A program made the translations under genes and the position numbers. Of a stretch of DNA of 64,000 bases, positions 38,850-42,622 are shown one piece after another. Location of the stretch: the NCBI RefSeq assembly GCF_056712565.1, contig NZ_CM160072.1. The stretch is one strand, 5' to 3'. Within the stretch, counting starts at the first letter, position 1; each line of letters starts with the position of its first letter. The notes below the pieces were generated by a model, which worked only from the letters and a program-made list of their open reading frames with translations, was not told the DNA's origin and did no database searches.

Positions 38850-39502
38850 TGACTTGATAATGTCTCCGCATTACACAGACCATGGCGAATTGCCAGGTGA
38901 GTCAGCTCAACATCGCCATGAATGTTTAGTTTACTGAACATACGATAGCGGTAGCTGTTCACCGTTTTCGGACTGAGATTGAGCTGTTCTGAGATCTCAT
39001 TGACCTTCTGGCCCTTGGTGATCATCAGCATAATCTGCAATTCACGTTCAGACAAACTGGCAAATGGGCTTTCTGTTTTTTCTGGTTCGATCTGGCTTAA
39101 CGCCATTTGTTGAGCGATATCAGAAGCAATGTAACGCTGCCCTGAATAGACAGAACGAATCGCACTCACGACTTCCTGCGGAGCCGCGCCTTTGCTGAGG
39201 TAGCCCGCAGCTCCGGCCTGCATGACTTTCGCTGGTAAAGGGTTTTCTGTATGGACGGTAAGCATGATGATTTTGACATCAGCTGTGGAACGCGCGATTT
39301 TACGCGTCGCCTCAAGACCGCCAATGCCCGGCATACTCATGTCCATTAGCACCACGTCAACGGCATTTGCCCGGCACCATTTAACGGCGTCTTCACCGCA
39401 CGATGCCTCACCGACGACTTTTATACCCTTTATATCTTCCAGAATGCGTCGTATCCCTGCGCGCACCAGTTCGTGGTCATCAACAAGTAGAACGTTGATC
39501 AA
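38846..39502 (-). CDS. uvrY: Response regulator UvrY (BarA partner, LuxR/FixJ family)
   Basis: 218 aa, receiver domain plus LuxR-type HTH; 4-bp overlap with uvrC. Confidence 0.95.
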
Positions 39503-39960
39503 AGGAATATCTCCAGAAATAGGGATAACGCTACTGATAGTTAGTCATTCGTATATTAGCGGTTTTTATTGCAACTTTGAAACGTTAAAAATGGTGGGTA
39601 TTCGATTTTTCTCTCGTTTTTGTCAATTCGATTGTCCACAGTTATGGTCACGCCCGTCACCAACGGCTTCCGGGATCGTTTCACAGTAAGCCCGGCGATG
39701 AAATGTGACAAAAATTGACTTTATTCAGCAAAAATGAAAATCAGCCCGCTGAATATGTAACATTAATTAACCCGAACAATACGGGCAAAAAACATTCATG
39801 ATAAAAATATTTATTGGTCATTATATTAACGTATTTTATAGTACTGTTGATATCACGCTCAAAAAACAACCACTGCTATTTTTAGCAAAGCTTATGGTAT
39901 ACTCCGCCGCCTTAACATTTTTCACCGCAAATTTTCATTGCAACATGACGAGGAAAATAA

Positions 39961-40185
39961 ATGAGTACGCCTGATTTTTCTACTGCCGAGAATAATCAAG
40001 AACTGGCAAATGAAGTCTCCTGCCTGAAAGCGATGCTGACGCTGATGCTGCAGGCGATGGGACAAGCTGACGCGGGCCGCGTGATGTTAAAGATGGAAAA
40101 ACAGCTTGCGCTGATCGAAGACGAAACCCAGGCTGCAGTATTTTCCAAAACGGTTAAGCAAATTAAACAAGCCTACCGTCAGTAA
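39961..40185 (+). CDS. yecF: Uncharacterised small protein YecF
   Basis: 74-aa ORF at the conserved position between uvrY and sdiA, followed by a terminator. Confidence 0.7.
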
Positions 40186-40189
40186 TATA

Positions 40190-40223
40190 AAACCGGCTGA
40201 GAGCGTGCCTTTCAGCCGGTTTT
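40190..40223 (+). terminator. Rho-independent terminator after yecF
   Basis: aaccggctga...tcagccggtt hairpin followed by TTTT. Confidence 0.65.
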
Positions 40224-40252
40224 TGCATCTGGCACGCAGAACAGAAAAGAGA

Positions 40253-40975
40253 TCAAATTAAGCCAGTAGCGGCCGCGTAACAGGCAACCTGCGTCTTATT
40301 CGGTGCATTGATTTTTTTCTGCATGTTTTTCTGATGGAAATTGACCGTATTCTCAGAGATTGACAAAATCATCGCTATCTCTGCTGATGTCTTACCTTCC
40401 GCCGTCCATTTCAGAATTTCTTTTTCGCGCTTGCTGAAATTCATCTCTGGCGTCATCACTATTTCATCATTTAAACGCATCAGAGCCATCAGACTTTCGC
40501 GCACCAGTAGCTGCATTTTTAATTGCAGTTCATCACTAAGAATGGGTATTTCGCGCGTGCTGCAACGGGAAAAGGACAAAAAGCCCAACGCCCGATTTGG
40601 CAGCATTAAATACTGAGTGACACCGCGGCGTAAACCATGTGCGCGCGCAGCTTCCCATAACGGCTGTGCTTCGCTGAATAAGTCATCATTCCACATTAAA
40701 TGGCCCTGACTAAAGTTTTCAGGGTTCAGCACCGGATCAATTGCGAGAAAATTTTTTGCCTGATAATAACTAACCCACGACTCAGGGTAATTGGTATAGA
40801 AAGCCACTTTAGGTCGCGTGAATGGTACCGGGTGGCGAACACATAACGAATAGTAATCGTACTCCAGCTGCTGAGCCTGAAGCTCTATTTCATGGTAGAC
40901 CTCTTCTGCGGCCTCCATCCTCTGAAAACGCAACAACATCGTGCGAAGCCAGCTGAAAAAATCCGTATCCTGCAT
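40253..40975 (-). CDS. sdiA: LuxR-type quorum-sensing regulator SdiA
   Basis: ORF 40253..40987; start set at MQDTDFFSW (240 aa); autoinducer-binding domain plus LuxR HTH. Confidence 0.9.
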   Translation of the reverse strand: MQDTDFFSWLRTMLLRFQRMEAAEEVYHEIELQAQQLEYDYYSLCVRHPVPFTRPKVAFYTNYPESWVSYYQAKNFLAIDPVLNPENFSQGHLMWNDDLFSEAQPLWEAARAHGLRRGVTQYLMLPNRALGFLSFSRCSTREIPILSDELQLKMQLLVRESLMALMRLNDEIVMTPEMNFSKREKEILKWTAEGKTSAEIAMILSISENTVNFHQKNMQKKINAPNKTQVACYAAATGLI

Positions 40976-41204
40976 AGTAAACCGCAACGCCCCTGAGAGT
41001 GAGTATCATTTATAATGATAATTCAAACTATCACATAAATAAGATTTATATATAATTTATATTATTCAGGCAATGAATTACTTTTGCAAGCCATCGCATT
41101 CTCTTATGTTATTAATGAGTTATGCTGATTTGTTAAGCAGTTTTATCACGTTTGAAATGGCGTCCCGCCCCGACTGGTGAATCGTCGGGGCTGATTTTTT
41201 CTTA

Positions 41205-41957
41205 TTATTGCAGCAGAAACTTCTCCATGAACTGGCGGGTGCGAGGCTGCTGAGGATCAGCAAATAACGCTTTTGCTACCCCCTGCTCGACTATCCGCCC
41301 CTGGTCCATAAAAATCGCCCGGTCCGCAACATCCCGGGCAAAGCTCATTTCGTGCGTCACAATCACCATCGTGCGCTTTTCCTGCGCCAGCTGACGAATG
41401 GTGTTCAGGACTTCGCCCACCAGCTCTGGATCCAGCGCCGACGTTGGCTCATCAAACAAAATCACTTCAGGACGCATTGCCAGAGCACGCGCAATCGCAA
41501 CGCGCTGCTGTTGACCGCCAGACAAACGACGTGGATAACTGGTTTCTTTACCGGCCAGCCCAACTTTCGCCAGCAGCTCGCGAGCGCGCGCCGTGGCCTC
41601 TTCTTTCGGTTCGCCTTTGACGATCACCGGCCCTTCAATAATGTTTTCCAGCACCGTACGATGCGGAAACAGATTAAAGTTCTGGAAGACAAACCCGACG
41701 TGCTGACGCAACTGGCGAATCAGCGATTTTTGCTGACTTAATGAACGTGCAGTATCAATAGTGATATCGCCAACGGTGATGGTTCCCGCTTCCGGTTGTT
41801 CCAGCAGATTTATGCTGCGTAGCAACGTGGTTTTGCCGGAACCACTCGGACCGATAATAGCCACTACTTCGCCAGGCTTCACCTCAAGGTCGATACCATG
41901 CAGCACCGTCTGACCGTGGAATTTTTTCACCAGGTTCTTAACTTCAATGGCACTCAT
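41205..41957 (-). CDS. tcyN: Cystine ABC transporter ATP-binding protein TcyN (YecC)
   Basis: 250-aa ABC ATPase (Walker A GPSGSGKTT, signature LSGGQQQR). Confidence 0.9.
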   Translation of the reverse strand: MSAIEVKNLVKKFHGQTVLHGIDLEVKPGEVVAIIGPSGSGKTTLLRSINLLEQPEAGTITVGDITIDTARSLSQQKSLIRQLRQHVGFVFQNFNLFPHRTVLENIIEGPVIVKGEPKEEATARARELLAKVGLAGKETSYPRRLSGGQQQRVAIARALAMRPEVILFDEPTSALDPELVGEVLNTIRQLAQEKRTMVIVTHEMSFARDVADRAIFMDQGRIVEQGVAKALFADPQQPRTRQFMEKFLLQ

Positions 41958-42622
41958 TTGGGTTCCCTCTCCTGGCGATTAAGTTGATTCTCAAAATGGT
42001 TCTGCAACGTCGATAACACAGTCGCCATAATCCAGTAGATGAGCGAAGCCGCCAGGTACATGGTGAACACCTCCAGCGTGCGCGAGGTAATCAACTGCGC
42101 CTGACGGAACAGCTCCGGCACCTGGATTGTCGCGGCCAGCGACGTATCTTTTACCAGGCTGATAAAGCTGTTCGACAGCGGCGGCAACGCCACCCGCGCC
42201 GCCTGTGGCAAAATCGCGCGACGCATGGTCTGCCATGGCGTCATACCAATACTGGCTGCAGCTTCCCACTGACCTTTATCAATAGAAGAAATGGCGGCGC
42301 GCAGCGTTTCGGCAGCATAGGCGGCAGTGTTCAGCGACAGACCAATCATTGCTGACGGAATGGGATCTAGTTCGATGCCAAACTGCGGCAAGCCGTAATA
42401 GATCATAAACAGTTGGGCGATGAGCGGCGTACCACGAAAAATAGAGATATAAAAACGCGCCAGCCAGCGCACGGGCCAGATTGGCGAAAGGCGCATCAGC
42501 GCGAGAATAAACCCTAGCAGTAAGCCAAAAAACATGCCGCCGATACTGAGTTGCAGCGTATACCCAGCCCCTTTCAGCAGGAACGGCAAGGAATCAATAA
42601 CCAGTTGTATACTTTCTTGCAT
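41954..42622 (-). CDS. tcyL: Cystine ABC transporter permease TcyL (YecS)
   Basis: 222-aa polar amino acid ABC permease; 4-bp overlap with tcyN. Confidence 0.9.
   Translation of the reverse strand: MQESIQLVIDSLPFLLKGAGYTLQLSIGGMFFGLLLGFILALMRLSPIWPVRWLARFYISIFRGTPLIAQLFMIYYGLPQFGIELDPIPSAMIGLSLNTAAYAAETLRAAISSIDKGQWEAAASIGMTPWQTMRRAILPQAARVALPPLSNSFISLVKDTSLAATIQVPELFRQAQLITSRTLEVFTMYLAASLIYWIMATVLSTLQNHFENQLNRQEREPK

Follow-up and report, generated by a model that had tools for sequence, protein, structure and literature searches.

The window analyzed here, a stretch of 64,000 nucleotides, was a 100% match to Escherichia coli ATCC 11775, and the genes around the site of interest follow the order uvrC (−), uvrY (−), yecU (+), yecF (+), sdiA (−), tcyN (−), tcyL (−), and dcyD (−). 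Between sdiA and tcyN lies a gap of 229 nt, for which the automatic RefSeq annotation of ATCC 11775 gives no feature. An earlier note, made from the sequence alone, had described a plus-strand hairpin in this gap at 41163-41195 and had observed that both flanking genes are on the minus strand, as the annotation of sdiA and tcyN bears out; the sequence of the hairpin was also correct and its span very nearly so, with the fold covering 41162-41195 and the T-run continuing to 41200, beyond the end then given. The features discussed below are collected in table 1.

Table 1. Genes, promoter elements, and terminator features in and around the sdiA-tcyN gap (window coordinates).
Feature	Position	Strand	Evidence or remark
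YecU, annotated small protein (58-codon ORF overlapping the yecF start)	39798-39974	+	ORF list, annotations
yecF	39961-40185	+	Ends 982 nt upstream of the stem
sdiA	40253-40975	−	ORF list, annotation
−10 box TATAAT, 6 nt upstream of the putative 5' end of SdsN178	41011-41016	+	Sequence; putative
SdsN178, longer isoform with the same 3' end (inferred extent)	41023-41200	+	Literature (PMC5736990); 5' end by length arithmetic only
−10 box TATAAT, 7 nt upstream of the 5' end of SdsN137	41051-41056	+	Sequence; fits the annotated start
SdsN137 sRNA gene (homologue of b4719)	41064-41200	+	K-12 annotation, alignment
Extended hairpin, in which GUC (41162-41164) pairs with GAU (41193-41195) beyond a small internal loop	41162-41195	+	MFE structure, K-12 alignment
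SdsN core terminator hairpin, 8-bp stem GCCCCGAC/GUCGGGGC, 9-nt loop UGGUGAAUC	41167-41191	+	Sequence, folds, seven-sequence Escherichia consensus structure, pair counts
Terminator tail UGAUUUUUU, six-U run 41195-41200, presumed Hfq-binding 3' tail	41192-41200	+	Gap-free alignment to MG1655 sdsN
tcyN stop codon TAA	41205-41207	−	4 nt beyond the SdsN 3' end; ORF list, annotation
tcyN	41205-41957	−	ORF list, annotation

The curated record of K-12 MG1655 (NC_000913.3) lists an ncRNA, sdsN (b4719, "small regulatory RNA SdsN"), of 137 nt on the plus strand at 1996921..1997057, between sdiA and tcyN and on the strand opposite to both. This gene could be aligned to the window over its full length and without a gap (133 of 137 positions identical), and its annotated 3' end maps to 41200, so that the annotated K-12 transcription unit closes with the final T of the run, leaving 4 nt to the tcyN stop. 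In addition, TATAAT boxes lie 6-7 nt upstream of the 5' ends expected for the two isoforms, and the two boxes are identical in K-12. The earlier note had taken yecF, about 1 kb away, as the nearest upstream gene on the plus strand; this is right for protein-coding genes, but the premise as a whole was wrong because the curated K-12 record has sdsN on the plus strand between sdiA and tcyN, directly upstream of the hairpin. SdsN was reportedly described in E. coli K-12 by Hao, Updegrove, Livingston and Storz in 2016 (NAR 44:6935). It is a sigma-S-dependent and Hfq-dependent sRNA (PMC9262595, PMC5736990, PMC8139620), of which SdsN137 and SdsN178 are made from two promoters and, as isoforms, "share the same terminator" (PMC5736990). 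The Hfq-dependent isoforms accumulate in stationary phase (PMC9262595) and repress narP, nfsA, and hmpA (PMC9262595, PMC8139620); SdsN137, one of three isoforms, pairs with the narP translation initiation region, nfsA and hmpA are the other confirmed targets, and SdsN protects against nitrofurans (PMC8139620). Taken together, we hold with high confidence that the hairpin is the Rho-independent terminator common to the isoforms of the known sRNA SdsN. The reading as a plus-strand intrinsic terminator was the right one, on the grounds of the stem, the T-run, and an annotated sdsN 3' end on the last T. The experimental 3' end of SdsN is implied here by the RefSeq coordinate together with reviews.

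Among the genomes sampled, sdsN was annotated only in the curated K-12 record; the RefSeq annotation of ATCC 11775 lacks it, as do those of the others. A search of 39500-42500 against Rfam 15 (E ≤ 1) returned no match; most likely Rfam has no SdsN family, and this miss thus does not count against membership, and the lack of an Rfam model would be the reason that automatic annotation misses sdsN in nearly every E. coli genome. These two gaps are probably also why the earlier note overlooked the gene. Adams et al. 2021 curated 3' ends from Term-seq (LB at OD 0.4 and 2.0, and M63 glucose), and their list has none at MG1655 19970xx on either strand (PMC7815308), for which low SdsN levels in those conditions may be a plausible reason, and the TERMITe supplements contained no 3' end for the sdsN terminator.

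An intrinsic terminator consists of a stem of about 5-14 bp that is rich in G+C and closed by a short loop, followed directly on the 3' side by a U-rich tract. On the plus strand, the arms gccccgac (41167-41174) and gtcggggc (41184-41191) form a perfect, G+C-rich inverted repeat around the loop tggtgaatc (41175-41183), giving a stem of eight perfect pairs of which seven are G-C. The repeat is followed directly by TGATTTTTT (tgatttttt, 41192-41200), in which seven of the nine letters are T and the last six form an uninterrupted U-run (41195-41200), and then by a c at 41201. The loop of 9 nt is long for an intrinsic terminator, which counts against this reading. When folded, a plus-strand stretch of 56 nt reached −18.2 kcal/mol and the core hairpin −15.3 kcal/mol, and the z-scores of short folds against shuffled sequence, a control that is not to be read as a probability, were modest (−1.8 on the plus strand and −2.3 on the minus strand). 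The statistical case thus rests on a strict scan of the window and on conservation.

The strict scan recorded perfect stems of 8 bp or more that held at least six G/C, with a loop of 3-10 and at least six T in the next nine positions. Over both strands of the window it found four sites (five overlapping hits), whereas 30 dinucleotide-preserving shuffles gave 0.1 on average and 2 at most, and the combination of hairpin and T-run exceeds chance expectation. A simple terminator scan was uninformative, with seven sites where 6.5 were expected, and it picked up the hairpin only as a shifted version with six pairs. The other three sites that passed the strict filter, at 56624-56652 (+), 22169-22135 (−), and 5501-5468 (−), are presumably ordinary gene terminators.

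We addressed conservation by comparing the window with K-12, an Escherichia sp., E. whittamii, two divergent "E. coli" lineages, and E. albertii. Within Escherichia, identity to the window across the sdiA-tcyN gap was 83-98%; SdsN was nearly invariant in its 5' part (about 41064-41140) and variable in its 3' third, and the T-run was invariant except for one G in E. albertii. Among the seven Escherichia sequences, 85.7% of the stem cells were paired, compared with 27-56% when the 3' arm was slid by 1-3 columns. Changes on both sides occurred in three of ten stem pairs, with compensatory replacements of GAC/GTC by GGT/ACC in E. whittamii and of A-U by G-C in lineage E69, and RNAalifold predicted the same hairpin unaided from these seven sequences. 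In a sample of this size, the covariation is supportive of the predicted stem rather than decisive.

Beyond the genus, an SdiA-based scan with one genome per bacterial species yielded 80 loci, and tcyN lay upstream of sdiA in 76 of them. Outside Escherichia the gap was at most 50% identical to the window, and only the sdiA-proximal part was recognizably conserved. A plus-strand run of at least five T beside the tcyN stop was present at all five Escherichia loci and at none of the 71 other Enterobacteriaceae loci, and this distribution agrees with that of the conserved SdsN body, which is likewise confined to Escherichia. The motifs TGATAATCA and CTAWCACATAAA (about 41005-41040), which lie in the half of the gap nearer to sdiA, were conserved from Escherichia to Enterobacter and Pseudescherichia, and the rest of the gap was not; they are probably promoter or operator elements of sdiA, and the region that holds them overlaps the 5' end of the long isoform SdsN178.

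The features of the locus suggest the following course of events. SdsN is transcribed on the plus strand, divergently from sdiA and convergently with tcyN, and in ATCC 11775 RNA polymerase would start at about 41064 (SdsN137) or about 41023 (SdsN178). After the conserved 5' part that would pair with targets, the polymerase would transcribe the G+C-rich stem-loop, pause on the U-run, and release the RNA 4 nt short of the tcyN stop, at about 41200; in stopping there, sdsN transcription would be kept from running antisense into tcyN. The earlier note had proposed the termination of antisense or read-through transcription into the tcy operon as a possible function of the hairpin; with an sRNA gene of its own upstream, this does not hold as the main role and is retained only as a by-product. 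By analogy with other Hfq-dependent sRNAs, the stem-loop and 3' oligo-U tail should double as an Hfq-binding, stabilizing module, and the terminator tail is presumed to be the Hfq-binding 3' tail of SdsN.

Compared with K-12 sdsN, the window has the gene at the same locus and on the same strand, and the 5' 85 nt, the terminator stem, and the T-run are identical. The four substitutions fall in the 3' third (41149, 41151, 41166, and 41175), one of them in the loop. At 41166, K-12 has an A that pairs with U41192 and gives a stem of ten contiguous pairs, whereas ATCC 11775 has a C, and the A-U pair at the foot of the stem is lost.

Terminators of Hfq-dependent sRNAs such as SgrS and RyhB serve as Hfq-binding modules made of a stem-loop and a 3' oligo-U, and their loops are usually 3-5 nt. 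The SdsN terminator resembles them in its G+C-rich stem, in the six U at the 3' end, and in closing an intergenic sRNA described in the literature as Hfq-dependent. However, its loop is 9 nt instead of the usual 3-5, and its U-run is set off from the core stem by UGA, a part of which is paired in the extended stem. The arrangement also resembles that of bidirectional terminators, in that one hairpin lies between the convergent units sdsN (+) and tcyN (−) and 13 nt from the tcyN stop, but the U-run is present on one side only and the symmetric A-tract/U-tract is absent. A canonical bidirectional terminator was rejected on this account, the tail in the tcyN sense (GGGACGCCA) having 0 T of 9.

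As the terminator of a published and curated sRNA, the element was already known; its recognition from the sequence is correct but ordinary and carries little weight as a discovery. It is of more use as a calibration point, which shows that an orphan terminator without a gene nearby on the same strand is a good pointer to an unannotated sRNA. The restriction of both the terminator polarity and the SdsN body to Escherichia is a small evolutionary observation that bears on how young sRNAs arise.

Since SdsN ends only 4 nt short of the tcyN stop, the hairpin is also within the 3' UTR of tcyN on the opposite strand. On balance we consider it rather unlikely that the hairpin acts mainly or additionally on the minus strand as a 3'-end structure of the tcyN (dcyD-tcyLN) mRNA, where it would either terminate transcription weakly, without a U-tract, or block 3' exonucleases by its stem-loop once transcription has terminated further downstream; such a role is compatible with the one in SdsN. 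The stem begins 13 nt past the tcyN stop, and the minus-strand fold is equally good (−19.0 kcal/mol for a stretch of 76 nt, z = −2.3). Other genera also lend this idea some support: at 45 of the 65 non-Escherichia Enterobacteriaceae loci in which at least six contiguous pairs were found, the stem ended no more than 20 nt from the tcyN stop, and the tails were T-richer on the tcyN-sense side (mean of 3.7 T of 9, against 1.7 on the other side), with at least five T in 14 loci. By these counts the tcyN-proximal hairpin looks older than SdsN. However, the T-free tail of Escherichia in the tcyN sense means that there is no canonical intrinsic terminator on the tcyN strand, the curated Term-seq list has no minus-strand 3' end near the hairpin (PMC7815308), and the hairpins of the other genera share no sequence with that of Escherichia, so that their homology is unproven.

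A hairpin of unrelated sequence 1-20 nt after the tcyN stop was the rule in most non-Escherichia Enterobacteriaceae (L008-L082, within the first 80 nt or so past the stop, locus coordinates about 1270-1500). These comparisons suggest a tcyN 3' hairpin that predates SdsN and acquired the opposite polarity in Escherichia, and the presence of a T-run on the SdsN strand in the Escherichia loci only may reflect a switch in polarity that was connected with how SdsN arose. In a further reading, which we consider rather unlikely, an old tcyN 3' hairpin would have become, through a T-run gained on the opposite strand in Escherichia, a terminator for transcription from the sdiA side, and would thereby have helped to create SdsN. 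If true, this would be the birth of an sRNA by borrowing the terminator hairpin of a convergent gene, and the hairpin that remained for tcyN in Escherichia would lack a U-tract, so that tcyN transcription might read through towards sdiA.

The assignment to SdsN has also to be weighed against other sources of plus-strand transcription. Because yecF is the nearest plus-strand protein-coding gene, and because any polymerase arriving on the plus strand would meet a competent terminator, the hairpin might end read-through from yecF or other plus-strand transcription antisense to sdiA. We consider this very unlikely, as the hairpin is immediately preceded by an sRNA gene that has −10 boxes of its own and as such transcripts would meet two probable earlier stops. 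One is a terminator-like plus-strand hairpin at 40290-40307 (40290-40316 with the tail TTGATTTTTT), inside the 3' end of sdiA and about 100 nt past yecF; the other, antisense to sdiA, is a region of Rho termination reported at MG1655 1996249 (+), corresponding to about 40392 in the window (supplement of Adams et al. 2021, PMC7815308), which is about 200 nt past yecF and about 775 nt before the hairpin. Together, these two probably end yecU-yecF transcription.

A plus-strand ORF of 35 codons (MNYFCKPSHSLMLLMSYADLLSSFITFEMASRPDW, 41073-41180) lies inside SdsN, with its stop codon in the terminator loop. That the hairpin terminates a small-protein gene of this kind is still less probable: the window, K-12, and two other Escherichia lineages have the ORF, but its start was lost or early stops had arisen in three of the seven (ATG to ATT and an earlier stop in L005, and a stop at codon 8 in both L006 and E. 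albertii, L007). Moreover, its C-terminal half is not conserved, and the curated K-12 record leaves it unannotated, although the nearby YecU is included there. Judged by these sequence comparisons, the ORF is probably not coding.

The chance that the hairpin is a REP-type dispersed palindromic repeat, or a palindrome of no specific role, appears negligible: the RepRanger survey, with its broad definition, labelled an sdsN-associated palindrome 'REP' (PMC12306157), but the 45-nt element, found in 5372 of 5426 complete E. coli genomes, occupies a median of one and a maximum of two places per genome and has its sole copy in the window here, so that as a single-copy element it is not a REP, and a chance palindrome is contradicted by the 0.1 sites expected per window and by the compensatory changes that keep the stem paired.

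In E. coli S4 (NZ_CP107140.1, 2412-3078), a deletion has fused a truncated uvrY to the 3' part of sdsN (from about 41128 in window coordinates); yecU, yecF, sdiA, and the SdsN promoters and 5' part are gone in this strain, and the terminator is left.
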